Source: Acidobacteriota bacterium (lineage in GTDB: Bacteria; Acidobacteriota; UBA6911; RPQK01; CBDEGM01). From it: a stretch of DNA of 64,000 nucleotides. The notes under the pieces were generated by a model, which saw nothing but the letters and a program-made list of their open reading frames with translations, was not told the origin of the DNA and ran no database searches. Below, piece by piece: positions 4,587-60,288 of the stretch; the first letter of the stretch is position 1, and each line of letters starts with the position of its first letter. The stretch spans positions 1,746,375 through 1,810,374 of the forward strand of contig CBDEGM010000003.1 of the NCBI GenBank assembly GCA_965237715.1. The letters run 5' to 3'. Position numbers and translations under genes: made by a program.

Positions 4587-4657
4587 ACCCGCTTTTGGAA
4601 GTTCGTTAGCTGGCCCGTTGGAGGGCGCGAGCTGCGTCTTTCAGCGGGTTTTTTTGT
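4587..4657 (+). terminator. Stem (aacccgct / agcgggtt) followed by TTTTTTT
   Basis: Hairpin and poly-T immediately downstream of the DUF465 gene. Confidence 0.4.
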
Positions 4658-4666
4658 TGCTGCACC

Positions 4667-20987: not shown

Positions 20988-21782
20988 CCTCGATGTCGCT
21001 GGACTTCAAGATCTGACGCAACGGCAAGTGCTTCGTGTCACGGTCAAGGATGACGTGGGCCGAGCTGCGGAAAAAACCGTCGACACAGCCGGTCAGGTTC
21101 CTTCCGAGTTGCTGCATCCATTCGGAGTTGGGGTGAGGCGTCGCACCCGCGATTTCAATGCGCCGCGTCTTTAGATGCATCACCACAAGGACGTAGAACG
21201 TGACCAGTCCTGACCGAGTCCAGACCTCAACGGTCGTAAAGTCGGCGGCTGCGATCGAATCCCAGTGAGCAGCAAGGAAGGTACGCCAGGCCGTGCGGCT
21301 CTCGCGCTCTGGAGCTGGCTCGATGCCGTGGGCTTTGAGAATGTTGCCAACCGTGGTGTCAGAGATGTGGAAGCCCAGGTTGGCTAAAGCACCCTGGATA
21401 CGGTCATAGCCCCAGCTAGGATTCTCCTGAGCCATGCGCAGAGCCAAGTCCACAATCTGTGTCGAATGCGTGGCCGGCCAACGGATTGCCTCTTGTCTGA
21501 GTGATCCCACTTGCGAGCGATAAGCTCTCGATGCCAGCGCAGAAGCGTGTCGGGCCTGACGATCTTGGCCAGTTTGCCGAGGCTTTTTCGGCCCAGCACC
21601 TTGCCCTTGACGGCCAAGCGTCGACGCTGGCCGTCGTTGAGCAGAATGCGGCGCTTGCCGAGCTTTTCTCTGAGTACCTGATTCTCAGTCAAAAGATACT
21701 CGATCGCGTCCTGCTGGTCTCTGTTGATCCAACCGGCCAAGATCAGGAGCAGCAGCTGCCAGGGCCTGAGCACGAAGTTCAT
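20965..21782 (-). pseudogene. N-terminal two-thirds of the IS481-like transposase, with two frameshifts
   Basis: ORFs 20965-21510 and 21384-21782; the [22 protein letters not shown] segment marks the shifted frame. Confidence 0.6.
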
Positions 21783-21927
21783 GGTTGATTAGATGCTCAC
21801 GTCAAGTGCTCAGACGCAAAGGGGGAAAACATTGGGGCTCAACCAAGGCTGACTTCTGTTTGCCGTGACGGTTACAACTTGTTGCACAATAGAGACTTGT
21901 GGGTCGGCTGAATATTTTGACCTTACG

Positions 21928-27793: not shown

Positions 27794-28605
27794 GGCACTG
27801 TCAGAGGAAAGTCGCAAGGACTGAGTTCTCCACCGACGACAGGGAATTAGGCCGCCCCGAGCTGACGCCACTCGGCGAGTGCGGCGGCGCGGTTGAGCTT
27901 GAAATTGTCTCGTGAGCAGAGGTGTCGTGCCTGGTTGAAGTGATTGTAAACGGAAGAATGAACGGTGGCGAATTTCTGGAGGCTTTGCATCCGCCTGAAA
28001 CGGAGCATGGCGTGTTCTCGTCGCCGGAACGGCAGGTGTGAATTCTCCGCACGATTGTTCAGCCAGCGGCCGGCTTGTTGCAGACCGGATCCGCCCAGTT
28101 CGCGCAACGCCGCTCGGTAAGACCTCAGCCGATCAGTGATGATCGCATCCGGCCTGCCGTAGCGCTTCATTAGTTTCCTGAGGAATTTCAAAGCGGCTTC
28201 GCGGTCTCTCTTCTTCGAGACAAAGGCCTCAAGCACCTCGCCTTCCTGGTCGACGGCTCGCCAAAGGTAATGGCCTTCGCCGTTGATCTTCACGAACATC
28301 TCATCGAGGTGCCACCGCCAACCCGAAAACGCGCGCATTCGATCCATCCGCTTCTTGCGGATCTCGGCGGCGAAGATCGGGCCGAACCGGTTCCACCAGA
28401 ACCGGATCGTCTCGTGGCTCACCTCGATCCCACGCTCGTGAAGAAGGTCCTCGACATTGCGTAGCGACAGTGGGAAGCGAACATACATCATCACTGCCAG
28501 GCGGATGATCTCGGGCGAGGTCTTGAAATAGCGAAAGGGGTTCTTCATCCGAAGACACTACAAGGCGCATCTCGCCGACTCAAGCCAGTTTCCTCTGACA
28601 ATGCC
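27794..28605 (-). mobile_element. IS6-family element 2 (812 bp), IRs GGCACTGTCAGAGGAAA / GGCATTGTCAGAGGAAA
   Basis: IRs read directly at both ends. Confidence 0.75.
27847..28548 (-). CDS. IS6-family transposase (distinct from 14931-15653)
   Basis: 233 aa; IS6 pattern SLRNVEDLLHERG...HLDEMFVKING. Confidence 0.85.
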   Translation of the reverse strand: MKNPFRYFKTSPEIIRLAVMMYVRFPLSLRNVEDLLHERGIEVSHETIRFWWNRFGPIFAAEIRKKRMDRMRAFSGWRWHLDEMFVKINGEGHYLWRAVDQEGEVLEAFVSKKRDREAALKFLRKLMKRYGRPDAIITDRLRSYRAALRELGGSGLQQAGRWLNNRAENSHLPFRRREHAMLRFRRMQSLQKFATVHSSVYNHFNQARHLCSRDNFKLNRAAALAEWRQLGAA

Positions 28606-28687: not shown

Positions 28688-28813
28688 ACTGTCAAGTTAA
28701 CCGAAATGCACTCTTTTTCGATGCGAAATCAATTCTAGCCAGCATGGAAAATCAACGACTTAGCTAGTACGTCAATCAGGGTTAACCTCCAGAAAATCAG
28801 TTAACTTGACAGT
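28688..28813. mobile_element. MITE copy a (126 bp; TIR ACTGTCAAGTTAAC, variant-1 interior)
   Basis: Perfect 14-bp TIRs. Confidence 0.6.
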
Positions 28814-29337
28814 GCCGTATCGAGCAATACCTGGATTGCCGGCCGGTCCCCCGGCCGGTCGCCGACATGGTGTAGCCGAACGACTCCCTCCGGGTCGACG
28901 AGCACGTCGCCTCCCAGTTGGCTGACATCGCCACTCGGCATCCGGAGACGCCGCCCCCGTAACAGCAGCTTCATATAGGCCCACCAAGACGGCGGTCCGA
29001 AAATACTCCACCAGTGCCCCCGGTTCATGCCATAGGCCTGATACACCTCCAGCGCACTGTCGATCAGTATCGGCCACTCCAGACGCGTGTCCCGCACATA
29101 GGCCTCGGCGACCGGGCCGCTCTGGAAGGTGACGACGACGACCTGGACATCGAGTTTCTTCAACTCCTTCTTGTGCTGTCGCAACTGCGACAGGTGTTCC
29201 CGGCACGGCAGTCAGGCTAGGTGCCGGTGAAACACCAGCAGTAGCCAGTGTCCGGAGTAGTCCGCGAGCTGGTGCCAGCGGCCTGTGAACTCGGGTAAAC
29301 GGAACCCGACGGCAGGTTGTCCGCGTTTAGTTTCCAT
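28801..29337 (-). CDS. Thioredoxin-fold TlpA/ResA-like redoxin with an in-frame TGA (29212-29214) at the CxxC first-Cys position (U-L-P-C). Candidate selenoprotein, copy A; the last codons and stop lie inside the MITE TIR
   Basis: ORFs 29212-29412 and 28801-29184 are in the same frame, separated only by TGA; alignment to TlpA (F.LP...G..L.D..G..LLV.F....U.PCR.E.P.L; WPILID; YQAYGM; VLVDPEGVV..HVG); hairpin CUGUCGC-AGUU-GCGACAG 21 nt after the UGA. Confidence 0.6.
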
Positions 29338-29474: not shown

Positions 29475-30336
29475 CGCGTTGTTGCACAATTCCGGCCGGG
29501 TCACGGACCGATCCCAGTCCTGTTTGAATGCTATCGAATTCGCACTGACTCAGGCATGCCCCGGCTTGACATACGATTCAGCACCTCACATTTGATGATG
29601 GCCTCGACCCGTTGATTGTCGAATCGTCGGGCCGACAGCTTAGGCCCAAACAACGTCTTGAACCTCGACATCGCATTCTCTGCAAGGCTTTGCCTGGCGC
29701 AACCACTGGAGATGCGCCATTCATATCGACCGAGTCTCCTTATTTCTCGTAGATGGGCATCCCGCATTGCCCGCCAGGCAGGCGGGTCCACACTTTCACT
29801 CAGCCGCGCACTGCGTCGCGGAGGGATGGTGGCGACAGCCTCCCGCTCGAGTATCGATTGATAACAGGCCCTCGTGTCATAGGCCCCGTCGCCCGAGACT
29901 TGAACGATGCGACCCGGAATCTGATCCAGCAGGGCCGGCAACAGACGACAGTCGTGGACCCGGCTCGGTGTAACCTCCACCGCCACAATCTCTTTCGTCC
30001 TCTCATCGACACCCAGGTGCAGCTTGCGCCAGGCTCTGCGCCGACCATGTCGATGCTTTCGGACGTGCCATTCACCCGAGCCGTACACTCTCAGGCCCGT
30101 CGCATCCACAACCACGTGCCGAGGCCGACTGCTTGGGCTAACAGTCAAGAACGTCGCCAAGGAACTCTGTCGTCTACTGAGAGTGCTGTAGTCTGGAACT
30201 GGCAGATCGAGTCTGAGCAACTCCAGGAGCGAAGAAACGAAGCCCTGCGTCGACCGAAGGCTAAGATGAAACACCGACTTCAATATCAGCGCACACTGAA
30301 TGGCCGTGTCGGAGTAAACCTTCGGAGCGCCGGGGC
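29475..30336 (-). mobile_element. IS903-group (IS5 family) element, truncated at its transposase-N-terminal end by IS481-like copy 7
   Basis: IR CGCGTTGTTGCACAATTCCGG at 29475; sequence near-identical to the full copy 39048-40111. Confidence 0.75.
29531..30283 (-). pseudogene. IS903-group transposase lacking about 65 N-terminal aa
   Basis: 250 aa aligning to residues 66-315 of the 315-aa transposase. Confidence 0.7.
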
Positions 30337-31555
30337 CGTAAGGTAAAAATATTCGGTCGGGCAGCGGATCCTTAGGATAGAAGGGCTCATGGGCGTGCGA
30401 GCATCGGAATCTCAGGCGATTTCCGTTGAGAAACCAGCTTTTGGAAACGGGCTCCCGGTGTGAGGTCGTCGCTCCGGCACAGCGGTGCTGACTCGACCTT
30501 CTCCCCAGTCTTATGGAGTGTATCCGAATTCAAGCAGCGTCTCGATAGTAGTATCGAAGCAAGCCACCGAGCCTGGGACGGCAACTTAATTCGCCGTCCT
30601 TGCGACCAACTTCATCTCCCGCATCAATGATTCGGTTCGCGAGTCCCTGATGATTCCGTTCGTGGTGAAAGTGCTCTCCGAACTCTCTCAAGGCCCGACG
30701 CAATGACGCTTCACCAAAGAAGATCATACGGTTGAGACATTCAGATTTCAGGGAGCGCATGAAGCGTTCCAGATGAGCATTGAGATTAGGACTCTTGGGA
30801 GGTAAGACTACCGCCTCGATGTCGCTGGACTTCAAGATCTGACGCAACGGCAAGTGCTTCGTGTCACGGTCAAGGATGACGTGGGCCGAGCTGCGGAAAA
30901 AGCCGTCGACACAGCCGGTCAGGTTCCTTCCGAGTTGCTGCATCCATTCGGAGTTGGGGTGAGGCGTCGCACCCGCGATTTCAATGCGCCGCGTCTTTAG
31001 ATGCATCACCACAAGGACGTAGAACGTGACCAGTCCTGACCGAGTCCAGACCTCAACGGTCGTAAAGTCGGCGGCTGCGATCGAATCCCAGTGAGCAGCA
31101 AGGAAGGTACGCCAGGCCGTGCGGCTCTCGCGCTCTGGAGCTGGCTCGATGCCGTGGGCTTTGAGAATGTTGCCAACCGTGGTGTCAGAAATGTGGAAGC
31201 CCAGGTTGGCTAAAGCACCCTGGATACGGTCATAGCCCCAGCTAGGATTCTCCTGAGCCATGCGCAGAGCCAAGTCCACAATCTGTTGTCGAATGCGTGG
31301 CCGGCCAACGGATTGCCTCTTGTCTGAGTGATCCCACTTGCGAGCGATAAGCTCTCGATGCCAGCGCAGAAGCGTGTCGGGCCTGACGATCTTGGCCAGT
31401 TTGCCGAGGCTTTTTCGGCCCAGCACCTTGCCCTTGACGGCCAAGCGTCGACGCTGGCCGTCGTTGAGCAGAATGCGGCGCTTGCCGAGCTTTTCTCTGA
31501 GTACCTGATTCTCAGTCAAAAGATACTCGATCGCGTCCTGCTGGTCTCTGTTGAT
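30337..31555 (-). mobile_element. IS481-like copy 7 (minus), 5' end removed by MITE copy c
   Basis: Right-end IR at 30337; homology stops at 31555, where the MITE TIR begins. Confidence 0.75.
30530..31519 (-). CDS. IS481-like transposase (ORF starts about 25 aa into the protein)
   Basis: 329 aa identical to the 359-aa family. Confidence 0.7.
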   Translation of the reverse strand: MTENQVLREKLGKRRILLNDGQRRRLAVKGKVLGRKSLGKLAKIVRPDTLLRWHRELIARKWDHSDKRQSVGRPRIRQQIVDLALRMAQENPSWGYDRIQGALANLGFHISDTTVGNILKAHGIEPAPERESRTAWRTFLAAHWDSIAAADFTTVEVWTRSGLVTFYVLVVMHLKTRRIEIAGATPHPNSEWMQQLGRNLTGCVDGFFRSSAHVILDRDTKHLPLRQILKSSDIEAVVLPPKSPNLNAHLERFMRSLKSECLNRMIFFGEASLRRALREFGEHFHHERNHQGLANRIIDAGDEVGRKDGELSCRPRLGGLLRYYYRDAA

Positions 31556-31556
31556 G

Positions 31557-31684
31557 GTACTGTCAAGTTAAGTGGAATTCTCGGGTTTTGGAGGCGAAAT
31601 CGGTCGTCGGTCGAACGTAGAATCAACAATTTAGGGACTTGCCAAGGCGCTGATTAGGCACCAAACCGGTTAACTTGACAGTAC
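31557..31684. mobile_element. MITE copy c (128 bp, TA-flanked, variant-2 interior)
   Basis: TIRs GTACTGTCAAGTTAAG / GTTAACTTGACAGTAC. Confidence 0.6.
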
Positions 31685-31898
31685 CCTAAAAAGGGCTTGA
31701 GAGACGGGCGTGTGAAAACGGTACGCCAACGCCACGCAGAAGCGTCTCTGCCAACCGAAGCCCCTCACCAGAGCATCGGCAAGCGCCCGGGATTTGGGCG
31801 GAAAACGGGGACGAGATCCACAAAAAACGTAGCAATATCAGAGATATAAGGGCGTGGCGGTGGGCGCAGTCTGGAGCGAACCCGTCTCTGGCCCGATT

Positions 31899-32095
31899 TC
31901 CCTGTTTAACAGGGAAAAAACAGGGAATTTCGTGGATTCGGCCTCGAATAGGCGGGATCGAAGCCTCCTAACCCACTGATATCATGGGGTTTCAGTTTCG
32001 AATTCCCTACGCCACGGAACAGGGAATTTGTTTGGTCGAACAGGGAATTTTCTGGGGGGAACAGGGAAAACCAGTTCGTGGAACAGGGAAGACCA
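31899..32095. repeat. Iteron-like array: four GAACAGGGAA(t/a)TT direct repeats at 21/21/22-bp spacing (32018, 32039, 32060, 32082), plus two more copies and inverted copies (31899-31927, 32001-32009)
   Basis: Read directly; the array ends 5 bp before the group II intron 5' GTGCG. Confidence 0.6.
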
Positions 32096-32100
32096 GTGCT

Positions 32101-34165
32101 GTGCGCGCGCACCGGATGCGCTGCGAATCGCAGCATCGATCCGGACAACGGGGTTCCTGCCGGCGGATGGGGTTCGCGCCGAACTACGGTGTCTTTCGCG
32201 GGTCGAGCAGCCCTATCTCAGTGGATGTCGATGAGGTAGTGATATCGGCGCACGAGACAGCGGCTGTCGTCAAGGCTCATCAGGTTGCGGAGGAATGCGT
32301 TGCAACACTTAGCTCGAAGGGTCGCCAACATCAGTGTGCCGCAGCAAGCGGCGTGAGAGATGGGAGTAGGCCTCCCGCAACCGGCTTGCAGGAGCAGGTT
32401 GCAAACCACCGTAAGTGGCTGTGGTTAAAAGCCGCGGTCGTGAGCGTTACGGAAAAGGTGCTCTAGAAGCATCAGGTGTGGATCAGGAAGACGAACACAA
32501 GTGAACCACCGTTCAAGTGCCGAAAGGACGAGATGGTGTCGAAACCGGGGAGTTGGTGTTGCCCCGGGACGAATCTGGCGGAAACCTGTCTACTGGTCAG
32601 GTGGCACCCGGCATAGAGGTGGCGTGAGCTTGATCTGGGCTCTCATGTTGAACTGCGGGAACCTGGAGCAACGATGCTAAGAGAAAGGCACAAGCAGAGA
32701 ACCTGCGAGGCCGACAGTATCGAAGCGTTGCCCAGGGGCGGACAAGCTCGTAGTAGCGATGAGGCTGCCGTAATGGCAGCGGAGCGAAGGGGCTTGGTCA
32801 CTCGGCTACAGACAAGCGGCCAACTGCTAGGCAGGAGGAGCCCTTGAAAGTAGCAAAGCCATTTGAGGTTTCTAAGAAGCTGGCAGGGCAAGCATACTTG
32901 GAGGTGAAGTCCAAAGGAGGTGCCGCAGGAGTCGATGGCGAGTCGCTTGAACTCTTCGAGCACAACTTGAAGAACAACCTCTATCGAATCTGGAACCGGC
33001 TGTGCTCCGGGAGCTATTTTCCACCACCCGTGAAAGCCGTGCCAATCCCGAAGAAATCGGGGGGCACGCGTGTTCTCGGAGTGCCTGCGGTCTCTGATCG
33101 AATCGCACAGACAGTGGTGAAGCAAGCCCTGGAGCCGATACTGGAACCGGTGTTCGATGAGGATTCTTTCGGCTATCGACCGGGAAAGTCTGCCCATGAC
33201 GCGATTGCCATCACCCGGAAACGGTGTTGGCGATACGACTGGGTGGTGGAGTTCGATATCCGCGCCCTGTTCGACAACATTGACCACGAACTGCTCATGA
33301 AGGCGTTACGCCACCATTGTCAGTGTCGTTGGGTGTTGTTGTACGTGGAGCGCTGGTTGCAGGCTCCACTTGAGCAGCCCGGCGGCAGTCTACAGGCGCG
33401 CGACAAAGGCACACCGCAAGGTGGAGTTGTGAGCCCTATTCTGGCAAATCTGTTCTTGCACTACGCGTTTGACGCGTGGGTGAGACGCCAACTGCCGGGG
33501 GTTCCATTTTGTCGATACGCCGACGATGGGCTGCTGCACTGCAAGAGCCAGTCTCAGGCGGAATACGTGATGAGCCTTATCTCGGAACGCTTCCGTGAGT
33601 GTGGGTTGGAGATCCATCCCGACAAATCGTCGATCGTCTATTGCAAGGATGTGAATCGCCTGGAAGAGCATTCGCGAATCAGCTTTGATTTCCTTGGTTA
33701 CACTTTCCGTCCGCGACGGTGTGTGAACAAGAAAGGGCAGGTTCACCCGAACTTTCTTCCTGCGATCAGTATCTCCTCGAAGAAGGAGATCAATCGATGC
33801 ATGCGTAGCTGGCATGTCCAGCTCAAGAACGAGAAGACGTTGTTGGATCTGTCTCAGATGTTCAATCCGAAACTCCGTGGTTGGCAAGCCTGCTATGGTT
33901 GCTTCCACGCGTCGGCACTGCGTCAACTGTGGCGGAACTTCAACCGGTATCTTGTGCAGTGGGTGCGAAGGAAACTCAAAAGATTTTCTGGGCATCGGCA
34001 ACGGGCGAGGCGTTACCTCGACCAGATTGCCCGTGCCAATCCGCATCTATTTATTCATTGGCGTCTTGGAGTCTTTCCTTGTGGCTTGAGTGATAGGAGC
34101 CGGATGAGCTGAGAGGTTCACGTCCGGTTCTTGGAGGGGCTGGGGGTGAGACTCCCCCGGCCTAC
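32101..34165 (+). mobile_element. Group II intron (5' GUGCG; domain V at 34097-34130; ORF in domain IV)
   Basis: Domain V GAGCCGGAUGAGCUGAGAGGUUCACGUCCGGUUC with the AGC triad; the 3' boundary is approximate. Confidence 0.7.
32844..34112 (+). CDS. Group II intron reverse transcriptase/maturase
   Basis: RT domains 0-7 with YADD; maturase X domain; 422 aa. Confidence 0.9.
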   Translation: MKVAKPFEVSKKLAGQAYLEVKSKGGAAGVDGESLELFEHNLKNNLYRIWNRLCSGSYFPPPVKAVPIPKKSGGTRVLGVPAVSDRIAQTVVKQALEPILEPVFDEDSFGYRPGKSAHDAIAITRKRCWRYDWVVEFDIRALFDNIDHELLMKALRHHCQCRWVLLYVERWLQAPLEQPGGSLQARDKGTPQGGVVSPILANLFLHYAFDAWVRRQLPGVPFCRYADDGLLHCKSQSQAEYVMSLISERFRECGLEIHPDKSSIVYCKDVNRLEEHSRISFDFLGYTFRPRRCVNKKGQVHPNFLPAISISSKKEINRCMRSWHVQLKNEKTLLDLSQMFNPKLRGWQACYGCFHASALRQLWRNFNRYLVQWVRRKLKRFSGHRQRARRYLDQIARANPHLFIHWRLGVFPCGLSDRSRMS

Positions 34166-34736
34166 TCAACCATCTTCTTCAACCACAACAAGGAAACTAG
34201 TTCGCCACCTCTTCGGTACATTTGCCCCCTTGATCTCTATGATGGACCGGAACTCCCCGCCGATGCTAGCGTGCCCGCTTACGCCGATTCATGCACCAAT
34301 GCCCTTCAACTAGTGTAGCGATCGGGACCCTCATTTCACTTGCGAAAAGTTTCCCCATTTTTCAAAAAGTTCACCCGTTCCACTTGTTAATCTTCCTAAC
34401 TCAACCATGTCAATTGGTTAGCAGAATCTCACCTGAATTTTTGGGGAAACTCCTGCAAGTGGCATGTACTAAAAAATCGGGGGAAAAAAAGGGAGGAAGG
34501 GCAGAGAAATTTAGGCGGACAAGCGGCCCTGAAAATGCATTATGCCGCGCGGGAGCGCAATGTCCGGAGCGACAGCATTTTACAACAGAGCATGAGCTGG
34601 CTACAATAACGGTCCGCTGAGATGGAGGCGTAAGCTTCCCCAGAAAAGACCCCATCCAAAAGTAGAATTTTCTGGCCCAAGGACAGAAGATGGGACAGGT
34701 TTCGCAGCAGATCGGGGTGACCGAGCAGACCTACTT

Positions 34737-35825: not shown

Positions 35826-36362
35826 ATGGAAACTAAACGCGGACAACCTGCCGTCGGGTTCCGTTTACCCGAGTTCACAGGCCGCTGGCACCAGCTCGCG
35901 GACTACTCCGGACACTGGCTACTGCTGGTGTTTCACCGGCACCTAGCCTGACTGCCGTGCCGGGAACACCTGTCGCAGTTGCGACAGCACAAGAAGGAGT
36001 TGAAGAAACTCGATGTCCAGGTCGTCGTCGTCACCTTCCAGAGCGGCCCGGTCGCCGAGGCCTATGTGCGGGACACGCGTCTGGAGTGGCCGATACTGAT
36101 CGACAGTGCGCTGGAGGTGTATCAGGCCTATGGCATGAACCGGGGGCACTGGTGGAGTATTTTCGGACCGCCGTCTTGGTGGGCCTATATGAAGCTGCTG
36201 TTACGGGGGCGGCGTCTCCGGATGCCGAGTGGCGATGTCAGCCAACTGGGAGGCGACGTGCTCGTCGACCCGGAGGGAGTCGTTCGGCTACACCATGTCG
36301 GCGACCGGCCAGGGGACCGGCCGGCAATCCAGGTATTGCTCGATACGGCACTGTCAAGTTAA
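35826..36362 (+). CDS. TlpA-like redoxin candidate selenoprotein, copy B (TGA at 35949-35951, UxxC)
   Basis: Identical architecture to copy A; ORFs 35682-35951 and 35979-36362 in the same frame; the stop codon sits inside the MITE TIR. Confidence 0.6.
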
Positions 36363-36443
36363 CTGATTTTCTGGAGGTTACCCTGATTGACGTACTAGCT
36401 AAGTCGTTGATTTTCCATGCTGGCTAGAATTGATTTCGCATCG
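36349..36443. mobile_element. MITE copy b (variant 1), truncated by an IS903-group insertion
   Basis: One TIR plus about 80 bp of interior; the reverse complement matches copy a. Confidence 0.5.
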
Positions 36444-38938: not shown

Positions 38939-39047
38939 AGTGCGCCTGCGAAGGCGTTTGATCAGAAGGGTGCAAGTTCCCTTCCAGGCCAACGTTACCG
39001 GCCTGAAGTCGACAGTGGTAACTGCGTTTCCGTGAGGAAAGGTGGAG

Positions 39048-40111
39048 ACGCGTTGTTGCACAATTCCGGTCGGGTCACGGACCGATCCCAGTCCTGTTTG
39101 AATGCTATCGAATTCGCACTGACTCAGGCATGCCCCGGCTTGACATACGATTCAGCACCTCACATTTGATGATGGCCTCGACCCGTTGATTGTCGAATCG
39201 TCGGGCCGACAGCTTAGGCCCAAACAACGTCTTGAACCTCGACATCGCATTCTCTGCAAGGCTTTGCCTGGTGCAACCACTGGAGATGCGCCATTCATAT
39301 CGACCGAGTCTCCTTATTTCTCGTAGATGGGCATCCCGCATTGCCCGCCAGGCAGGCGGGTCCACACTTTCACTCAGCCGCGCACTGCGTCGCGGAGGGA
39401 TGGTGGCGACAGCCTCCCGCTCGAGTATCGATTGATAACAGGCCCTCGTGTCATAGGCCCCGTCGCCCGAGACTTGAACGATGCGGCCCGGAATCTGATC
39501 CAGCAGGGCCGGCAACAGACGACAGTCGTGGACCCGTCTCGGTGGAACCTCCACCGCCACAATCTCTTTCGTCCTCTCATCGACACCCAGGTGCAGCTTG
39601 CGCCAGGCTCTGCGCCGGCCATGTCGATGCTTTCGGACGTGCCCTTCACCCGAGCCGTACACTCTCAGGCCCGTCGCATCCACAACCACGTGCCGAGGCC
39701 GACTGCTTGGGCTAACAGTCAAGAACGTCGCCAAGGAACTCTGTCGTCTACTGAGAGTGCTGTAGTCTGGAACTGGCAGATCGAGTCTGAGCAACTCCAG
39801 GAGCGAAGAAACGAAGCCCTGCGTCGACCGAAGGCTAAGATGCAACACCGACTTCAATATCAGCGCACACTGAATGGCCGTGTCGGAGTAAACCTTCGGA
39901 GCGCTGGGGCCCTTGGGCGGGTCGGCGTTCCGCCAGGCGGCAACGGCGTCCTCATCGAACCAAAAGGTCAGACGCCCCCTGGCGATCAGCGCCCGATTGT
40001 AGTCTGACCAGTTGCGTACTCGGTACCGGAACGTGTATTGATTCGGCGTCATTCCTCATGCTGGCACCCTGGCCCATCGGAGACAAGCGGACGTGCCGAA
40101 GCGATTTATGC
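39048..40111 (-). mobile_element. IS903-group (IS5 family) IS, full copy of about 1064 bp, IRs CGCGTTGTTGCA(C/T)AA
   Basis: IRs at both ends. Confidence 0.8.
39105..40052 (-). CDS. IS903-group transposase (315 aa)
   Basis: IS903-like core (VVDATGLRVYGSGEGHVRKHRHGRRRAWRKLHL), DDE, C-terminal MPESVRIR. Confidence 0.85.
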   Translation of the reverse strand: MTPNQYTFRYRVRNWSDYNRALIARGRLTFWFDEDAVAAWRNADPPKGPSAPKVYSDTAIQCALILKSVLHLSLRSTQGFVSSLLELLRLDLPVPDYSTLSRRQSSLATFLTVSPSSRPRHVVVDATGLRVYGSGEGHVRKHRHGRRRAWRKLHLGVDERTKEIVAVEVPPRRVHDCRLLPALLDQIPGRIVQVSGDGAYDTRACYQSILEREAVATIPPRRSARLSESVDPPAWRAMRDAHLREIRRLGRYEWRISSGCTRQSLAENAMSRFKTLFGPKLSARRFDNQRVEAIIKCEVLNRMSSRGMPESVRIR

Positions 40112-40202
40112 AACAACGCGTTTCGTTGTAACAAAAGCCAGCTCCGCTGATGGTCAAGCCTCCGGAGCCTTAGTCCTAGTAACAATTCCAAAAGGTACGG
40201 GG

Positions 40203-43200
40203 TCAATCTCCGGAAAATGCTTCAAGCTGGCTTGAGTTCGGATGTATCCGATCCGTGTAGAGGTGCCGTTTAAAACGATTGTCGTCAAGGCGATAGATCG
40301 CAGTGTGACGCAAGCGGCCACCAAACCCAGAGCCCACTTGAATCCCGCCGTAGGCACTCTTCTCACCAGCGATCACCCAGATTGCTGAGAGATCTTGCCG
40401 GTTGAGCATCTGCAAAAATGCGTCGCGATCGACAAGAGCCCCTGCGGGGCCAGATTCAACGACGGACGGATCATAGAATGTGCCTTGTCCATCTGAGCCG
40501 ACAAAAATCAGCGATCTCCCACTCGACAGCCGAAGTCCCATTTTCTCGGCTAGCCAGGGAGCAGGTATTTTGAATATAATCGTCTGATCGATTGAGTAGT
40601 CATAGTCGCCGCTCTCGCATGCGTAGGAGGCGATCGTTGGGCGTGTTGGCACGGCGAAGGCCTGCTGATCGTCGTGCGAACTCCACCGTCCGAATTCGCT
40701 CATTTCTGGGTGCCAAGGATATTCTCCGAGGTGAAAATACCCAGAATAAAGTTCGATCTTTGGGAATGAGCTGGGATCTGTCAGAATTTTGTCCTGGAGA
40801 CTTTTGACCATCTTAGCTTGGTCTTTGCGGCGTACGACGATGCAGGTAAGCCGAAACCACGTTTCCCGCTGAATCTCCCTCTTCCCGGCCCGCACGCCAG
40901 CACCTTTCCATGTTGAAAATCCCGAGAGGGCAAGCCATCTTCGGCCCGTCTTTGGATTACACAAATCAATCAGAGCTTTATTGTTGATGATGTCGCTGTC
41001 ACTGTCCAGCCAAGCAAGACGCTCGTGGGGATCCACCGCGCGAAGCGTAGGATTGAAAGGCACCCACCACGTTTTGCGCCACTCGGCCCAACCCTTGTAA
41101 TAGGTCTGAGTAGTCAAGAAGGACGGATCGATATCGCATAGTCCGACTTCACGGGCTCCTCGATATAGGGGTGGTTCGTCATCGTCTTGTTTCCATGGAT
41201 TGTCTAAGAAGGCAAGATTGTCCGCCATGCGGGCTACAAGTTCTTGGAGTGCAAGCCATTGGTACTTCTTGCCGATGCGTTCGATCCTGTGGCCGTTTCG
41301 GTCGTAGCCGCAGAAGTGATTGTCGAAATCACCGAAGCGTTTCGATGTCCAACCCAGTTCATGGGCTCGCTTGCAGATCCATCGACGGCCCCAATGAACG
41401 TCGAAGTGTGCGGCTCGATCCGCAAAGAGTTTGTGCCGGAAAAAGTCCTTTGCTCGAACTCGGAAGTCTTCCCATTGGTCCGACGCCATCGTCTGCTGAA
41501 GAGCCCCCTCGGCGGCGGCCAACCGCTCCGCCTCCGGACTGGACTGATGGCCGTGAACATCCTTAATTCCCTCGGTGGTGCTAACATATTCCTTAAAGGC
41601 CACAAGTTGGTCTGCGGTTGCACTGGCGACAAATTCCTGTATCCAGGTTCTGCAAATGTCGAGCGAAGTCGGTAGCGGCATTGCTCCGATTTTTGCAGGA
41701 CTCCATTTGTTCACCTTGTGATCAACTACATATCGCGCAAAGTCGCCCTCATGGACGGTGGAGAATACAATCGCGTCGCCAACGGACCCGCGCCCATGAT
41801 CCTCGGTATAGCCCTTAATCAATTCGTCCGGTACCGGTTCGATAGGCCAAGGACTTTGATATGGCGGCCGTGCAAGCGCAAGGTCGATTGAGCTATCCAG
41901 TACGCCGCAGTACGCTGCGTACTCTACAATACATCGGGCATGGTCGCGCAGAAGCGCATTCGCCGGTGGTTTCCCGTTGGCAAAGACCGTGTCGAAAACC
42001 ACCTGGGCAAGTTTGCCGAGTCCCGCTTCCCGCGTTCCTTGAAGAGCGGCGCCATAGCAAGCAGCCAACAGACGCTCAAGAACATACGGATCATTCACAC
42101 TCACAAAGTCGCCCAGTAAACGAGCGGCGAGCAAAAGCCGCCGACTCAGCACGCTAGCAAGGGCCTTGGTAGCCTTATCCCTGACCTCCCGGTGCGATGT
42201 GGCAAGGAACCAAGTGAGCATTGTCGAAGCCAAGTACGCACGATCCCCGTCTATATGCTCAAGATCACTTTGAAGCGCCCAGGAAATCAGTGTCTTGACA
42301 GGCTCATCGAAGCCACGCTCTGCCAAATAGACCGACCAGCGCGCATCGCGCTCCGGCATCGTCATTCCCATGAGCCGCTTATGGACAAAGAGTGCATTGA
42401 ATTTGTTAGACGTCTCTGTGCTGATTGCGACAAGCAGGTCGGTCAACTCGTCCGCTTGAACCAAGCCTCGAACTAGTTCGAACGTGTGACTAGTAAAGTG
42501 AGACTGCTCACGCCAAAGGAGGCTATTCAGAAAAGCGTCCCGCACTGTATACGAAGCGTCAGATCCAACATCCAATATCTCAACGCGGGTCCGTTCCGGG
42601 AGTTGAATGGTCATCGCCTCGATGATTCCGGCGCGTTCATAATTCTCCGTCCCGAAAACACACTTATGGAGAGGCTGGTCGGCTTGAAAGGAACTAGCCA
42701 CATTGTGGGTATTGAGATGGTCATCGAGCAAGTGCGACGCTATAGCATGATCGCTGAAACGCTCGAACGTGAAGCGAACCATTTCAGCAAGCGATCCATC
42801 ATCTTGCCGCAAGGGTTCGACGGTGAGAAGACCTCCGTTTTCCAGCTGCGCTAGCAGACTCTTCTCAAGGCTTCCTCTCGAGTCGAGAACCGATTCAAAC
42901 AGAGTAACTACGTCGCTTTTCGCGGCATATCCTTTGCCGGCGCCCACGAGTAATTGCGCAAAGCTGGCGATAGCCTTTGATACGATTTCCAGATGAGGGT
43001 CGAGCCTCATTCCCCGGTTCAGCGACTGAGATACAGCCTCGTTGTAGAATTTAAAGATCGATGTGACGCCGCGCAAACCTCTAGGAAATTCGGTTTTTCC
43101 CTCCTTTTCCAAGGAGTCGCAGCACATTTTCAAGAAAAGCGGATTTTCAAACTCGGGAACGAGATTAGGTGCCCCAGGTCGGACCATTCCTCGTTTGTCG

Positions 43201-44702
43201 AGGTACACCTTCGCAGCTTCGCCCCCGTTCGCCGCAAAGCCTCTGTGATCGACACGGAGGAGCCGATCTTCATCTATGTCATCCGGGATCACATGCCGAA
43301 CATAGGTCGAGCGGCATGACACGATCACGCTGACTCGCGGGAAAGCCTCGAAAGTATTGAGAAAGGCTGCGAGACGCTGCGGCCAGACATTAACGCCGTT
43401 GCGTTCGTTCAAAGCATCGATGCACACAATTGCTCTCAAGCTCGCGGCCTGCGCTGCTGCGTCCAGACTCGCGAGGAAGTATTTGAACTGCACCGTTGGT
43501 GGATGATCGAGTTGATCGCGAATCTGCGGCCACAGTTCAGCGTCGATAAACGCTTCGCCGAGAAAGAGCAGCGCTGGCCCACCTTCGTGAAGTTGATGCT
43601 CCACGATGTCGGCAAGCAAATGGGACTTACCGATGCCGGCCGGGCCCTGAAGCAGAACTGCCTGCGCGTTGGTCAGCCGCCAACGGTTCGAAGCGAGGTC
43701 GCTCTTGATTTCATGCAGTACCTCCATCAGTTCATAGAGGGTATGTTGCACCAAGCGTTCGGACTTGATGCCCATACTGCCGGGCTTGGAAGGCGGAAGG
43801 TCGTAGGACCAACGAAGGGCCTTTCTAGCGAGGTCGAGACCGTCTGCAGCTGCGGCACTCCAATCGGTTACAGGATAGGGTTGGTCGGGGCCGATTGGAT
43901 CCCCGTCAAGCAAAGACGTCAGAGCACAAATTGCCTCATCCAGAGGATCGATATGGGTTTCGGCTTCCTCCGCACCTGTTCCGCGTATGGCTTTTACGGC
44001 GCCGCTTCCTTTTTCGTTGACGCGTATAAACCACCCATCGATCTGCCTCTGAAGCTCAGGATGGCGTGCGAAGGCGAGGAAGTCCTGTCTGATTGGGAGT
44101 TCAACGTTTGTTTCGGGAGTGTATCGGCTGCCCAGAGACGCCCTTGCCTTCCCAAATTGCTCCTTGAACCAAGTCGTTGTTAGGGCCGCGTGGCCGAACC
44201 AGTACAGGACTCGACCTGAGTGGGCGGGGTCTTCTCTGACCAGACGAAGGCTGAGTTCGCTCTTGCCCCACAACCTGATAGTCAGGTCACGCTTCTGCAA
44301 TGCGGCAAACTCTTCCCATTTCGTGCACCAAGCGTCCCACTTCTCTTGTGCGGTCTTGCCCTTGCCGGTTCGGGAATCGGGAAGATCGAACGGAAGGCAG
44401 ACGATGTAATTAACGAGATTCGGGTGCCTATTCAACGCCGTGCATATTGAAACGTCAAGCTGTGCTGTCAGGCTTGCATTCCAGCTAAAGAGGTACTTGG
44501 CTTGCCATCCGACTTCCGTCCCGTCTGCACGGCGGCGGTAGCATTCGACACCAGCGTCGCCGCCCCGGCCTTTCCGATAGAATTTTCCTTCCGTGGATGT
44601 TGGCTCCAAAGAGGCGAGTTGGCAACACATTTCCTCAAACCCGGCGTGACGGCTTCCGTCAACCGGGCGAATCTTCTCGAAATTGATGTCTGGTAGGCTC
44701 AT
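40203..44702 (-). CDS. Avs4-like antiviral STAND NTPase: N-terminal Mrr-type PD-(D/E)xK nuclease, P-loop STAND ATPase and a long helical C-terminal sensor (1499 aa)
   Basis: Mrr-cat-like GGDAGVEC..(13)..GWQAKY; Walker A GPAGIGKSHLL; Walker B IVCIDALNE; sensor-1 VSVIVSCRST; about 900 aa of C-terminal helical region. Confidence 0.55.
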   Translation of the reverse strand: MSLPDINFEKIRPVDGSRHAGFEEMCCQLASLEPTSTEGKFYRKGRGGDAGVECYRRRADGTEVGWQAKYLFSWNASLTAQLDVSICTALNRHPNLVNYIVCLPFDLPDSRTGKGKTAQEKWDAWCTKWEEFAALQKRDLTIRLWGKSELSLRLVREDPAHSGRVLYWFGHAALTTTWFKEQFGKARASLGSRYTPETNVELPIRQDFLAFARHPELQRQIDGWFIRVNEKGSGAVKAIRGTGAEEAETHIDPLDEAICALTSLLDGDPIGPDQPYPVTDWSAAAADGLDLARKALRWSYDLPPSKPGSMGIKSERLVQHTLYELMEVLHEIKSDLASNRWRLTNAQAVLLQGPAGIGKSHLLADIVEHQLHEGGPALLFLGEAFIDAELWPQIRDQLDHPPTVQFKYFLASLDAAAQAASLRAIVCIDALNERNGVNVWPQRLAAFLNTFEAFPRVSVIVSCRSTYVRHVIPDDIDEDRLLRVDHRGFAANGGEAAKVYLDKRGMVRPGAPNLVPEFENPLFLKMCCDSLEKEGKTEFPRGLRGVTSIFKFYNEAVSQSLNRGMRLDPHLEIVSKAIASFAQLLVGAGKGYAAKSDVVTLFESVLDSRGSLEKSLLAQLENGGLLTVEPLRQDDGSLAEMVRFTFERFSDHAIASHLLDDHLNTHNVASSFQADQPLHKCVFGTENYERAGIIEAMTIQLPERTRVEILDVGSDASYTVRDAFLNSLLWREQSHFTSHTFELVRGLVQADELTDLLVAISTETSNKFNALFVHKRLMGMTMPERDARWSVYLAERGFDEPVKTLISWALQSDLEHIDGDRAYLASTMLTWFLATSHREVRDKATKALASVLSRRLLLAARLLGDFVSVNDPYVLERLLAACYGAALQGTREAGLGKLAQVVFDTVFANGKPPANALLRDHARCIVEYAAYCGVLDSSIDLALARPPYQSPWPIEPVPDELIKGYTEDHGRGSVGDAIVFSTVHEGDFARYVVDHKVNKWSPAKIGAMPLPTSLDICRTWIQEFVASATADQLVAFKEYVSTTEGIKDVHGHQSSPEAERLAAAEGALQQTMASDQWEDFRVRAKDFFRHKLFADRAAHFDVHWGRRWICKRAHELGWTSKRFGDFDNHFCGYDRNGHRIERIGKKYQWLALQELVARMADNLAFLDNPWKQDDDEPPLYRGAREVGLCDIDPSFLTTQTYYKGWAEWRKTWWVPFNPTLRAVDPHERLAWLDSDSDIINNKALIDLCNPKTGRRWLALSGFSTWKGAGVRAGKREIQRETWFRLTCIVVRRKDQAKMVKSLQDKILTDPSSFPKIELYSGYFHLGEYPWHPEMSEFGRWSSHDDQQAFAVPTRPTIASYACESGDYDYSIDQTIIFKIPAPWLAEKMGLRLSSGRSLIFVGSDGQGTFYDPSVVESGPAGALVDRDAFLQMLNRQDLSAIWVIAGEKSAYGGIQVGSGFGGRLRHTAIYRLDDNRFKRHLYTDRIHPNSSQLEAFSGD

Positions 44703-45115: not shown

Positions 45116-45123
45116 TTCGGTAC

Positions 45124-45245
45124 TGTCAAGTTAACCGATTTGGTGTCTAATCAGCGCCTCGGCCACTCCCTAAGTTGTTGATTCTACATTCGACCGCCGA
45201 CCGTTTCCGCCTCCAAAACCCGAGAACTCCACTTAACTTGACAGT
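45124..45245. mobile_element. MITE copy d (122 bp, variant 2)
   Basis: TA-CTGTCAAGTTAAC...GTTAACTTGACAG-TA. Confidence 0.6.
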
Positions 45246-47058: not shown

Positions 47059-47185
47059 TTCTCTGGCGACTCTCCCTCCATCGGTAGAATCTGCTGCTTC
47101 TCCGATGGATTGGATCTCACCCGCTGCGCCTTCTCGAAAGTCACGTCTTCGGCCAGGGGGTTGTCTACGCGCTTCCCGCCCAAGG

Positions 47186-47274
47186 GTACTGTCAAGTTAA
47201 CCGATTTGGTGTCTAATCAGCGCCTCGGCCACTCCCTAAGTTGTTGATTCTACATTCGACCGCCGACCGTTTCC
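47186..47274. mobile_element. MITE copy e (variant 2), 3'-truncated by insertion of IS481-like copy 1
   Basis: Identical to copy d up to ...CCGACCGTTTCC, then the IS IRL. Confidence 0.55.
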
Positions 47275-48691
47275 CGTAAGGTCAAAATATTCAGCCGACC
47301 CACAAGTCTCTATTGTGCAAAAAGTTGTAACCGTCACGGCAAACAGAAGTCAGCCTTGGTTGAGCCCCAATGTTTTCCCCCTTTGCGTCTGAGCACTTGA
47401 CGTGAGCATCTAATCAACCATGAACTTCGTGCTCAGGCCCTGGCAGCAGCTGCTCCTGATCTTGGCCGGTTGGATCAACAGAGACCAGCAGGACGCGATC
47501 GAGTATCTTTTGACTGAGAATCAGGTACTCAGAGAAAAGCTCGGCAAGGGCCGCATTCTGCTCAACGACGGCCAGCGTCGACGCTTGGCCGTCAAGGGCA
47601 AGGTGCTGGGCCGAAAAAGCCTCGGCAAACTGGCCAAGATCGTCAGGCCCGACACGCTTCTGCGCTGGCATCGAGAGCTTATCGCTCGCAAGTGGGATCA
47701 CTCAGACAAGAGGCAATCCGTTGGCCGGCCACGCATTCGACAACAGATTGTGGACTTGGCTCTGCGCATGGCTCAGGAGAATCCTAGCTGGGGCTATGAC
47801 CGTATCCAGGGTGCTTTAGCCAACCTGGGCTTCCACATTTCTGACACCACGGTTGGCAACATTCTCAAAGCCCACGGCATCGAGCCAGCTCCAGAGCGCG
47901 AGAGCCGCACGGCCTGGCGTACCTTCCTTGCTGCTCACTGGGATTCGATCGCAGCCGCCGACTTTACGACCGTTGAGGTCTGGACTCGGTCAGGACTGGT
48001 CACGTTCTACGTCCTTGTGGTGATGCATCTAAAGACGCGGCGCATTGAAATCGCGGGTGCGACGCCTCACCCCAACTCCGAATGGATGCAGCAAGCCGGA
48101 AGGAACCTGACCGGCTGTGTCGACGGCTTTTTCCGCAGCTCGGCCCACGTCATCCTTGACCGTGACACGAAGCACTTGCCGTTGCGTCAGATCTTGAAGT
48201 CCAGCGACATCGAGGCGGTAGTCTTACCTCCCAAGAGTCCTAATCTCAATGCTCATCTGGAACGCTTCATGCGCTCCCTGAAATCTGAATGTCTCAACCG
48301 TATGATCTTCTTTGGTGAAGCGTCATTGCGTCGGGCCTTGAGAGAGTTCGGAGAGCACTTTCACCACGAACGGAATCATCAGGGACTCGCGAACCGAATC
48401 ATTGATGCGGGAGATGAAGTTGGTCGCAAGGACGGCGAATTAAGTTGCCGTCCCAGGCTCGGTGGCTTGCTTCGATACTACTATCGAGACGCTGCTTGAA
48501 TTCGGATACACTCCATAAGACTGGGGAGAAGGTCGAGTCAGCACCGCTGTGCCGGAGCGACGACCTCACACCGGGAGCCCGTTTCCAAAAGCTGGTTTCT
48601 CAACGGAAATCGCCTGAGATTCCGATGCTCGCACCCCATGAGCCCTTCTATTCTAAGGATCCGCTGCCCGACCGAATATTTTTACCTTACG
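47275..48691 (+). mobile_element. IS481-like IS copy 1 (1417 bp), imperfect 25-bp IRs CGTAAGGT(C/A)AAAATATTC(A/G)G(C/T)CG
   Basis: Ends defined by comparing five full copies. Confidence 0.85.
47420..48499 (+). CDS. IS481-like rve-type DDE transposase (359 aa)
   Basis: HTH N-terminus, integrase core with ...SPNLNAHLERFMRSLKSE. Confidence 0.85.
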   Translation: MNFVLRPWQQLLLILAGWINRDQQDAIEYLLTENQVLREKLGKGRILLNDGQRRRLAVKGKVLGRKSLGKLAKIVRPDTLLRWHRELIARKWDHSDKRQSVGRPRIRQQIVDLALRMAQENPSWGYDRIQGALANLGFHISDTTVGNILKAHGIEPAPERESRTAWRTFLAAHWDSIAAADFTTVEVWTRSGLVTFYVLVVMHLKTRRIEIAGATPHPNSEWMQQAGRNLTGCVDGFFRSSAHVILDRDTKHLPLRQILKSSDIEAVVLPPKSPNLNAHLERFMRSLKSECLNRMIFFGEASLRRALREFGEHFHHERNHQGLANRIIDAGDEVGRKDGELSCRPRLGGLLRYYYRDAA

Positions 48692-50705: not shown

Positions 50706-51950
50706 GTCTGCTCCTGATCTTGGCCGGTTGGATCAACAGAGACCAGCAGGACGCGATCGAGTATCTTTTGACTGAGAATCAGGTACTCAGAGAAAAGCTC
50801 GGCAAGCGCCGCATTCTGCTCAACGGCGACCAGCGTCGACGCTTGGCCGTCAAGGGCAAGGTGCTGGGCCGAAAAAGCCTCGGCAAACTGGCCAAGATCG
50901 TCAGGCCCGACACGCTTCTGCGCTGGCATCGAGAGCTTATCGCTCGCAAGTGGGATCACTCAGACAAGAGGCAATCCGTTGGCCGGCCACGCATTCGACA
51001 CAGATTGTGGACTTGGCTCTGCGCATGGCTCAGGAGAATCCTAGCTGGGGCTTATGACCGTATCCAGGGTGCTTTAGCCAACCTGGGCTTCCACATCTCT
51101 GACACCACGGTTGGCAACATTCTCAAAGCCCACGGCATCGAGCCAGCTCCAGAGCGCGAGAGCCGCACGGCCTGGCGTACCTTCCTTGCTGCTCACTGGG
51201 ATTCGATCGCAGCCGCCGACTTTACGACCGTTGAGGTCTGGACTCGGTCAGGACTGGTCACGTTCTACGTCCTTGTGGTGATGCATCTAAAGACGCGGCG
51301 CATTGAAATCGCGGGTGCGACGCCTCACCCCAACTCCGAATGGATGCAGCAAGCCGGAAGGAACCTGACCGGCTGTGTCGACGGCTTTTTCCGCAGCTCG
51401 ACCCACGTCATCCTTGACCGTGACACGAAGCACTTGCCGTTGCGTCAGATCTTGAAGTCCAGCGACATCGGGGCGGTAGTCTTACCTCCCAAGAGTCCTA
51501 ATCTCAATGCTCATCTGGAACGCTTCATGCGCTCCCTGAAATCTGAATGTCTCAACCGTATGATCTTCTTTGGTGAAGCGTCATTGCGTCGGGCCTTGAG
51601 AGAGTTCGGAGAGCACTTTCACCACGAACGGAATCATCAGGGACTCGCGAACCGAATCATTGATGCGGGAGATGAAGTTGGTCGCAAGGACGGCGAATTA
51701 AGTTGCCGTCCCAGGCTCGGTGGCTTGCTTCGATACTACTATCGAGACGCTGCTTGAATTCGGATACACTCCATAAGACCGAGGAGAAGGTCGAGTCAGC
51801 ACCGCTGTGCCGGAGCGACGACCTCACACCGGGAGCCCGTTTCCAAAAGCTGGTTTCTCAACGGAACTCGCCTGAGATTCCGATGCTCGCACGCCCATGA
51901 GCCCTTCTATCCTAAGGATCCGCTGCCCGACCGAATATTTTTACCTTACG
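50706..51950 (+). mobile_element. IS481-like copy 2, lacking about 195 bp of its 5' end, with frameshifts in the transposase
   Basis: Homology starts inside the ORF; same [18 protein letters not shown] frame-shift signature as copy 6. Confidence 0.7.
50708..51757 (+). pseudogene. Degenerate IS481-like transposase
   Basis: Two compensating indels and E-to-G changes. Confidence 0.6.
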
Positions 51951-51951
51951 C

Positions 51952-53369: not shown

Positions 53370-53492
53370 GCGAGCGCGACGCGGTGTTCTCCCATGCCGA
53401 TCTGCAGCCGGCGGCGCTAGGGCGCGATCTGGGGTTGTGGGACGGTGTGACGCCGCCGGTCGCGCCGTGTACGCAATCCAGCAGATACAAAA

Positions 53493-55778: not shown

Positions 55779-56048
55779 CCGCCTGCTTCCGTATACAGGG
55801 TAGCACGCAGAAACGTATAACCGTATACGGTAGAGTTCAGGCGCTTCCCGTCTCGACCAGCTCTGGTCGGAGCTTGTATTCCCCGTAGAGCACAACGTTG
55901 TCCCACTGCTGGAGTCTCCGCTTTGAGTACGGACTCCTCGAGGTGACGGAAAGACGAATCCGGTCCGGCGATAAACGAGGTGGACCCGCAGCTCGTAGGC
56001 GAGGCTCTGGAGGCTTCTGCCACTCTCGTTGCCCGACCTCGCGAATCC

Positions 56049-60176: not shown

Positions 60177-60288
60177 TTGTCTCCCAGTGTCTCCTCAACT
60201 CATGATCCTACCTGGACTTCCTGGCGGTTGTCTGTCATCAAGACATGTATGAAGCGGAGCAAGGAGTCCAATCGCACTTGTCCCAACC

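Follow-up and report, generated by a model that had tools for sequence, protein, structure and literature searches.

A phased repeat array near a group II intron is probably the relic of an end module of compact integrative elements

Introduction

What does a short, strictly phased repeat array do when no gene for a protein that might bind it lies nearby? The question is raised by a 64,000-nucleotide stretch of contig CBDEGM010000003.1 from an Acidobacteriota bacterium, hereafter the window, in which many copies of the sequence AACAGGGAA are crowded together upstream of a group II intron. The original prediction for this locus compared the array with the iterons of a plasmid origin (oriV), a par centromere or an operator for a multimeric DNA-binding protein. 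It also proposed that the array might be the relic of an integrated plasmid or integrative and conjugative element (ICE), or the homing target of the intron.

Comparison with homologous loci indicates that the array is very probably the cis-acting end module of a family of compact integrative elements and survives here as a relic. We tentatively assign to it the role of a terminase recognition site, similar to the cosB and pac sites of phages. Multi-site arrays at the ends of mobile elements are known already, as are pac and cos sites.

Results

Anatomy of the array

The window contains nine exact copies of AACAGGGAA, compared with 0.56 expected, and none of 100 shuffled sequences reached nine. 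Seven copies lie within 31898–32090, six of them on the forward strand (31908, 31919, 32018, 32039, 32060, and 32082) and one on the reverse strand (31898–31906). The remaining two (3483 and 14424) are located inside coding regions, one ddl-like and one xerD-like. Four direct copies extend to GAACAGGGAA and follow each other at intervals of 21, 21, and 22 bp. Tandem Repeats Finder reports a 21-bp period at 32017–32068. The phased repeats described in the original prediction are therefore real, as is its palindrome TTTCCCTGTT-T-AACAGGGAAA, which occupies 31897–31917.

The region is arranged in three blocks, A, B, and C, with an IHF-like site and an inverted half-site between Blocks B and C (Table 1). 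Each Block C repeat is composed of a 12-nt conserved core and about 10 variable nucleotides. A scan of 31500–32200 found no promoters or terminators. No AT-rich stretch is obvious by eye in 31890–32100, a region in which no dedicated scan for an unwinding element or DnaA boxes was made. Rfam returned nothing relevant, either at gathering thresholds (the window and 16 loci) or in E-value mode (31600–32130).

A further sequence, AACAAGGAAACTAGTTCG at 34187–34204, lies just past the intron and resembles repeat 3 (AACAGGGAAAACCAGTTCG). With the intron removed, some 270 nt would separate it from repeat 4, and it would not be in phase.

Table 1. Features of the repeat module and its immediate surroundings in the window
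Feature	Position	Strand	Description
rve-type insertion sequence end or MITE-like terminal repeat	31555..31687	.	..TTAACTTGACAGTACC; several copies in the window and L002; outside the module
52-bp imperfect palindrome	31699..31750	.	GAGAGACGGG..N..GCGTCTCTG
Block A, junction/hairpin box	31854..31891	+	GTGGCGGTGGGCGCAGTCTGGAGCGAACCCGTCTCTGG; left arm absent in the window copy
Block B	31896..31930	+	one inverted and two direct sites, ATTTCCCTGTT T AACAGGGAAAA AACAGGGAATTT; centres ~11 bp apart
IHF-like site (putative binding site)	31980..31992	+	TATCATGGGGTTT; 2 mismatches to WATCARNNNNTTR; 39 nt upstream of repeat 1
Inverted half-site	32000..32009	-	GAATTCCCTA; 16 nt upstream of repeat 1
Block C	32017..32100	+	four direct GAACAGGGAA(t/a)(t/a) repeats, starts 32017, 32038, 32059, 32081
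Non-intron spacer	32101..32333	+	233 nt, array to intron; common only to the three copies in this genome
Group II intron	32334..34170	+	1837 nt; reverse transcriptase/maturase 32844-34112; delimited by multi-copy comparison; neighbour of the module, not part of it

The module is conserved in about 100 other loci

The module of which the array is part measures about 250 bp and recurs at about 100 other loci, in Alphaproteobacteria, on one Methylocapsa plasmid and on IMG/VR contigs. The module is sequentially composed of the Block A hairpin, Block B, the IHF-like site, the inverted half-site, and a Block C of two to four GAACAGGGAATT repeats. A two-repeat pattern scan identified about 25 loci with the architecture of the window, mainly in Alphaproteobacteria (Rhodobacteraceae, Hyphomonadaceae, Bradyrhizobium, Brevundimonas, Reyranella, and Shimia) and IMG/VR contigs; most of its returns were (GAACAGG)n heptamer microsatellites from cyanobacteria and other taxa, which were filtered out. 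In the cultured strain Shimia gijangensis DSM 100564 (L108), the recombinase accompanies the module. The Block B pattern TTCCCTGNTAACAGGGAA is present in 41 IMG/VR contigs and Block A in 107. In blastn searches with the module, plasmids gave one hit, Methylocapsa pRX1, and INPHARED phages gave none.

The geometry was analysed in 50 non-redundant modules, whose repeat consensus is GAACAGGGAATT plus about 10 variable nucleotides. Repeat spacing is 21 bp in 41 intervals, 22 bp in 42, 20 bp in one, and 23 bp in three, so that 83 of 87 intervals measure 21 or 22 bp. The distance from the start of Block B to repeat 1 has a median of 120 nt (interquartile range 119–129) and is 121 nt in the window. 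An inverted TTCCCT occurs 16 nt before repeat 1 in 21 of the 50 modules. The IHF-like sequence WATCARNNNNTTR, with at most one mismatch, is found in 18 of 50 modules against 2.0 expected, and 17 of its 19 hits fall 35–39 nt before repeat 1. The match in the window is weaker (two mismatches), with the offset unchanged. On the right, conservation ends directly past the last repeat, and on the left just outside Block A.

Two variant modules replace the motif in all copies at once, by CACGGAA in L261 and by TTCAACA in L284 (L numbers denote loci), with the layout of Blocks B and C unchanged. Since all copies change together, the repeats are best explained as protein-binding sites, and the array would provide a multimeric DNA-binding protein with phased sites. 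That part of the original prediction is retained.

Cyanobacteria are rich in these long (GAACAGG)n microsatellites (L003, L009, L046, and many more), which Gemmatimonadales, Acidobacteriaceae, and some viral contigs contain as well.

The module is very probably an end of compact integrative elements

Clustering of open reading frames (ORFs), followed by Pfam and PHROGs annotation, reveals five conserved neighbours of the module: a large serine recombinase, a DUF2924 protein, a methylase with ParB_N and N6_N4 domains, a DUF5681 protein, and a large terminase of the Terminase_6 family (TerL). A DUF3489 gene is an occasional extra. The module is one end of compact integrative elements of about 6–8 kb. 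All Block B contigs with at least 3 kb of flank carry all five genes. A recombinase-profile search retrieved at least 576 IMG/VR stretches, mostly contigs of 4–9 kb with the same cassette, and DUF5681 proteins numbered 2181.

The module and the methylase-DUF5681-TerL operon point in the same direction in 34 of 36 cases, and two layouts predominate. In type 1, Blocks A-B-C are followed by the methylase, DUF5681, TerL, sometimes DUF3489, then DUF2924 and the recombinase, all in one direction. In type 2, which is the majority, the recombinase and DUF2924 genes converge on A-B-C, and the methylase, DUF5681, and TerL genes point the other way. Tandem or permuted layouts, with the recombinase reading towards A-B-C and the methylase beyond, are also seen. 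The large terminase gene is directly followed by the recombinase cassette or by the element end. Each locus contains one module, with the array at one element end only.

The recombinase has Resolvase and Recombinase domains, is 550–600 residues long and is distantly CcrB/XisF-like. DUF2924, which is translationally coupled to it in all loci, has no solved structural relative. Leptospira phage LE3 has a DUF5681 homologue whose gene directly precedes, and overlaps, the annotated large terminase gene, and the portal gene comes next. By this position, DUF5681 is a candidate small terminase (TerS). No Rep, Par, portal, or capsid genes are present among the element genes. Neither ParA nor ParR is encoded in about 100 homologous elements, in which relatedness to ParB is confined to the ParB_N domain of the methylase fusion.

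The closest gene order in the literature is that of phage WO-type prophage ends, in which a recombinase and an attL-proximal ParB_N-methylase are likewise followed by the terminase (PMC10299305). In one wStri contig, the recombinase is also immediately downstream of a DUF2924 gene (PMC10299305). However, WO continues into portal, head, and tail genes, whereas TerL in the present elements is followed by the DUF2924-recombinase cassette or the element end. Marine VEIME satellites, which are without a large terminase, are the other nearest match, and again the gene content differs (PMC9618062). In the searchable literature, we found no description of the module or of a capsid-less family with recombinase and terminase.

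Three groups of related contigs were observed in addition. One sister class of elements, represented by L408, L433, and some 27 further IMG/VR contigs, shares Block A and encodes a homologous ParB-methylase, together with another small terminase (helix-turn-helix type, ..AAIIFWLKTRAHW..) and another large terminase. Instead of ACAGGGAA arrays, it contains the repeats GATTCYGG, which includes GANTC, and AATTTACCGTCTATAAAAAG. Tandem DUF2924-recombinase cassettes split by the Block A core, without terminase genes, occur in L254, L255, L256, L258, L259, L263, L278, L301, L308, and L363 and may be nested or tandem integrations at one site. In a 6.3-kb IMG/VR contig (L273), a CRISPR-like array at 4505–5155 (repeat ..GTTTCAATCCACG..) adjoins a recombinase homologue on its downstream side.

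The window copy is very probably a relic

The genome contains three copies of the module with the 233-nt spacer and the intron, in the window, in L002/L248, and in L246. This count covers the retrieved parts of the genome, namely the window and loci fetched through the ACT-domain and intron proteins. All three copies lie within one duplicated segment, in disagreement with a generic repetitive extragenic palindrome scattered over the genome. The L002/L248 copy is more than 99% identical from 31823 onwards, and repeat 1 of the L246 copy is cut by an IS1-like element.

In L002, a DUF2924 gene and a gene for a 569-residue large serine recombinase (Resolvase and Recombinase domains; PHROG 'integrase') lie directly upstream of the module. 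The window and L002 are identical rightwards from GTGGCGGTGGGCGCAGTC (31854); leftwards they are still homologous at about 60% identity. This switch places a breakpoint at the left edge of Block A. The left flank of the window copy is truncated by the end of an rve-type insertion sequence (IS), whose transposase gene at 30530–31519 (reverse strand) gives an rve_3 match. The window has no homologue of the recombinase, DUF2924, the methylase, or the terminase. The window copy is thus an element relic: the IS removed its recombinase side, its packaging genes have been lost, and the intron inserted 233 nt downstream. The suggestion that the array is a mobile-element relic with no cognate gene nearby holds in this form.

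Block A probably marks the recombination junction

The Block A consensus in other loci is GACTGCG-TGGYGGYG-CGCAGTC-N4-GCGAAC-N3-TCTC, which forms a hairpin or palindrome. Its outer arms covary between loci and, as the Rfam searches gave nothing relevant, correspond to no known RNA. The Block A core is also found 3' of the recombinase gene in recombinase-only tandem loci without arrays. The ends of IMG/VR contigs cluster 10–300 nt outside Block A. Fragments resembling tRNA 3' ends are present at L203, L338, and L470, and tRNA genes lie beside the relatives L293, L072, L305, and L077. Together with the identity break between the window and L002, these features suggest that Block A most likely marks the recombination junction. 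A search for attL/attR direct repeats yielded only short shared cores of 9–10 nt and located neither the exact crossover nor an attB. One locus, L079, was considered as an empty site and rejected as a decayed second copy.

The 52-bp imperfect palindrome to the left of Block A resembles a serine-integrase att site in size and symmetry and may have such a function. In L002, it is located about 100 nt past the recombinase stop codon; the alignment with the window shows that its arms are kept and its centre has diverged. GAGACG..CGTCTC palindromes of about 50 bp occupy the equivalent place in L218, L305, L313, and L316.

A terminase recognition site is the tentatively favoured function

With the anatomy, conservation, and gene association of the module observed, the question becomes which protein would bind it. 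The array appears to track the packaging genes rather than the recombinase alone. ACAGGGAA arrays are present in 16 of 55 recombinase loci with the terminase cassette, versus none of 25 without it. Among Block A loci, arrays accompany 22 of 29 with DUF5681 and Terminase_6, versus none of 29 with the other TerS/TerL pair (p = 5.6e-10). Any element that encodes a terminase of its own also needs some site at which that enzyme recognises the DNA. Among the conserved genes there is no further candidate for the binder, since no extra DNA-binding ORF is conserved upstream of the methylase and the largest cluster of additional ORFs includes 7 of 59 loci.

We therefore favour, tentatively, a cosB- or pac-like site for the element's own terminase. 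In this model, an element-encoded protein, most likely the DUF5681 small terminase, would bind the phased sites as an oligomer. An IHF-type bend would fold Block B onto Block C, and the resulting nucleoprotein complex would mark the element DNA for the terminase, as at lambda cosB or a pac site. Binding by the small terminase and cleavage by the terminase at or near the module are predictions of this model.

Lambda cosB contains the I1 IHF site between clusters of binding sites, and the fixed position of the IHF-like site between Blocks B and C supports the same reading here. Lambda cosB (gpNu1 sites R3-I1-R2-R1), P1 pac, and SPP1 pacL/pacR share with the module short repeats of mixed orientation in two clusters split by an IHF-type bend site. 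They also share a location near an element end; in type 1 elements, terS-terL follows the module in the same orientation. The module differs in having eight sites over about 200 bp with strict 11-bp and 21–22-bp phasing. The site is separated from terS by a methylase gene (by the recombinase cassette in type 2), and capsid genes are absent. Repeats and a candidate site for a host bending protein are found near terS-terL, with DUF5681 at 1.5–4.5 kb, further than in the classical cases.

Several observations weigh against this assignment. The two terminase classes are deep lineages, with methylases only about 35% identical across them, and the association of arrays with one class may therefore reflect ancestry. 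In type 2 elements, the array directly adjoins the recombinase gene at its 3' end, 3–4 kb away from DUF5681. The module stands beside the presumed att junction in all layouts, which fits a recombination role equally well. An AlphaFold2 model of DUF5681, with a mean predicted local distance difference test score (pLDDT) of 50.3, is too poor to confirm a small-terminase fold. Co-variation of motif and protein across L261, L284, and the terminase classes singled out no binding protein: the DUF5681 N-terminal arm is changed in L261 (CACGGAA), but it is canonical in L284 (TTCAACA), where no protein is unusually diverged. Many modules are solo, with no element genes nearby; about 11 lie between ordinary host genes (gcv genes, UDP-glucose enzymes, dnaG-rpoD, and others). 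Finally, the elements are without replication genes, which sits poorly with the formation of packageable concatemers.

Accessory recombination sites

The strongest competitor to a terminase site, though in our judgement an unlikely one, is that the repeats are accessory recombination sites of the arm or res type, with Blocks B and C bound by the C-terminal region of the recombinase or by DUF2924. With the IHF bend, they would form an intasome-like complex beside the Block A crossover and control integration or excision. The module always adjoins the junction box, the identity of the window and L002 jumps from about 60% to 100% exactly there, and contig ends cluster just outside it. Circular or tandem forms have the module next to the 3' end of the recombinase gene, and the recombinase stop codon of type 2 elements is found 0–25 nt past the last repeat. 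The translational coupling of DUF2924 to the recombinase in all loci speaks for this reading as well.

The IHF-like site recalls the arms of lambda attP. Lambda-like attP arm sites and the accessory sites of res and Sin also combine direct and inverted protein sites and an IHF-like site beside a recombination junction, which in the present elements is a probable one. The enzyme here differs, being a large serine recombinase. This class is not known to use accessory sites, and for its known members att sites of about 50 bp suffice, which argues against placing the array in that family of sites. Moreover, arrays are absent from many relatives with the same junction box, as the 25 recombinase-only and 29 other-terminase elements counted above have the Block A core and no array. 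The orientation of the module relative to the recombinase also varies, as the recombinase may read towards Block A or towards Block C. If the array were such a site, it would be the first requirement of this kind known for a large serine recombinase.

Operator, iterons, and transposon ends

An improbable alternative is an operator region similar to R1 parC, in which a promoter in the spacer of about 80 nt between operator clusters B and C would be controlled by an element-encoded repressor or activator of the methylase-terminase operon. The type 1 module lies 0.2–2 kb upstream of that operon in the same orientation, and two clusters flanking a spacer are a conserved geometry. However, the majority type 2 module points into the convergent 3' end of the recombinase gene, a scan of the window copy gave no sigma-70-like promoter, and no conserved regulator gene accompanies the module. 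Because the module of the main layout faces a convergent gene end and no regulator is conserved, a promoter-operator is unlikely as its general role.

Plasmid iterons (oriV) or a par centromere from an integrated plasmid or ICE are less probable still. The 12-nt core repeated at 21–22 bp with a nearby IHF-like site resembles RK2- and pSC101-type origins, and the iterons of RK2 oriV, pSC101, P1, and F are likewise direct repeats with a conserved core and a period of two helical turns. One module is indeed carried by a plasmid. There, too, hypothetical genes and a methylase follow, and no rep gene. Neither Rep, ParA, nor ParR is encoded in the window or by the conserved genes of about 100 related elements, so that an iteron origin or a par site is unlikely. 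The module further differs from iterons in lacking an evident AT-rich unwinding element and in its chromosomal, integrative-element context. The direct repeats on which the oriV proposal was based are present, yet the adjacent rep gene is not, and the par proposal fails on the lack of an adjacent partition operon, with only the ParB_N domain fused to the methylase. The accompanying remark that no cognate Rep or Par gene is nearby is borne out in the window.

The ends of Tn7 and Mu also have three to four tandem sites of about 22 bp at the element terminus. A transposon end of this type was rejected, as the elements encode no DDE transposase (TnsB or MuA) and the array is present once per locus, at one end only.

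The group II intron and its boundaries

The intron near the array was delimited by comparison of its copies (loci L244–L253). Rfam matches D1-D4-2 at 32362–32477 and domain V/VI at 34095–34170. The intron ORF encodes a 422-residue protein with RVT_1 and GIIM matches and no endonuclease domain, and at least ten exact copies of this protein are present in the same assembly. Across copies at six different insertion sites, similarity starts at 32334 (..TCA followed by GTGTGCCGCAGC, GTGTG) and stops downstream at 34170. At 32101, where the intron had been supposed to start with GTGCG, two sister copies read GTACG and GTAGG. The intron therefore begins at 32334, and 233 nt of non-intron sequence separate it from the array, which does not abut it as first described. 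The boundary of a multi-copy group II intron is thereby corrected.

The 5' exons of the copies share only ..(C/T)(G/A)TCA directly before the intron, and those at the six other insertion sites are unrelated to the array; the array is thus neither intron part nor intron target. Proximity is all that speaks for such a role, which has next to no chance of being correct given these boundaries, the unrelated exons, and about 100 homologous modules without an intron.

All insertion sites read ..(C/T)(G/A)TCA before the intron and C after it, often with GGTY about 10 nt upstream. Several copies interrupt IS transposase genes. The intron looks actively retrohoming or retrotransposing.

Genomic neighbourhood

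The surroundings of the relic are an IS graveyard, with an IS6-type transposase gene (27847–28548), IS5-type copies, the rve-type IS ending at about 31687, and a 558-bp inverted duplication. Other genes on the contig encode PSCyt1/2, PSD1, and DUF1501 proteins, a set characteristic of Planctomycetota. In the window, rve-type IS are located at 20988–21927, 30336–31687, 47183–48691, 50708–53370, 56046–57467, and 60287–61707, and IS5-type at 29475–30337, 39047–40120, 57466–58074, and 62718–63788. The very dense IS, with many copies 98–100% identical and in both orientations, point to recent expansion and IS-mediated rearrangement.

The perfect 558-bp inverted duplication (28780–29337 and 35826–36383) carries an AhpC/TSA-like ORF. 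Its two halves flank a segment with the relic, the intron, and the ACT-domain gene, an arrangement that resembles a composite transposon. A 90-nt element, repeated exactly at 45119–45208 and 47185–47274, begins with the IS terminal repeat GGTACTGTCAAGTTAA and is related to 31555–31687; it looks like a miniature inverted-repeat transposable element (MITE) or a duplicated IS end. Downstream of the intron, 83 bp (34222–34304) are 96% identical to L002 3778–3860, directly upstream of the start of an IS5-family transposase gene, and are probably a leftover IS end. A 1499-residue ORF (40203–44702, reverse strand) adjoins IS copies and gives weak AAA_16/NACHT P-loop matches. It may encode a STAND-type NTPase, possibly a defence gene.

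Discussion

The window copy alone is a dead relic and says little about this genome. It points to an element family that is common in metagenomes and is notable for combining a serine integrase and a complete terminase with no capsid genes and an unusually regular cis-site. A broader proposal, which we regard as possible but doubtful, is that the module is the pac site of very abundant, undescribed, capsid-less integrative elements that encode small and large terminase, ParB-methylase, and serine integrase. The element, or host DNA next to integrated or solo copies, would then be loaded into the capsids of a helper phage or gene transfer agent (GTA). If so, the family would represent a terminase-bearing class of phage satellite or lateral-transduction element. 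Should the array prove to be a terminase site, the family would add a new kind of hitchhiker on phages or GTAs, one whose DNA handle is defined.

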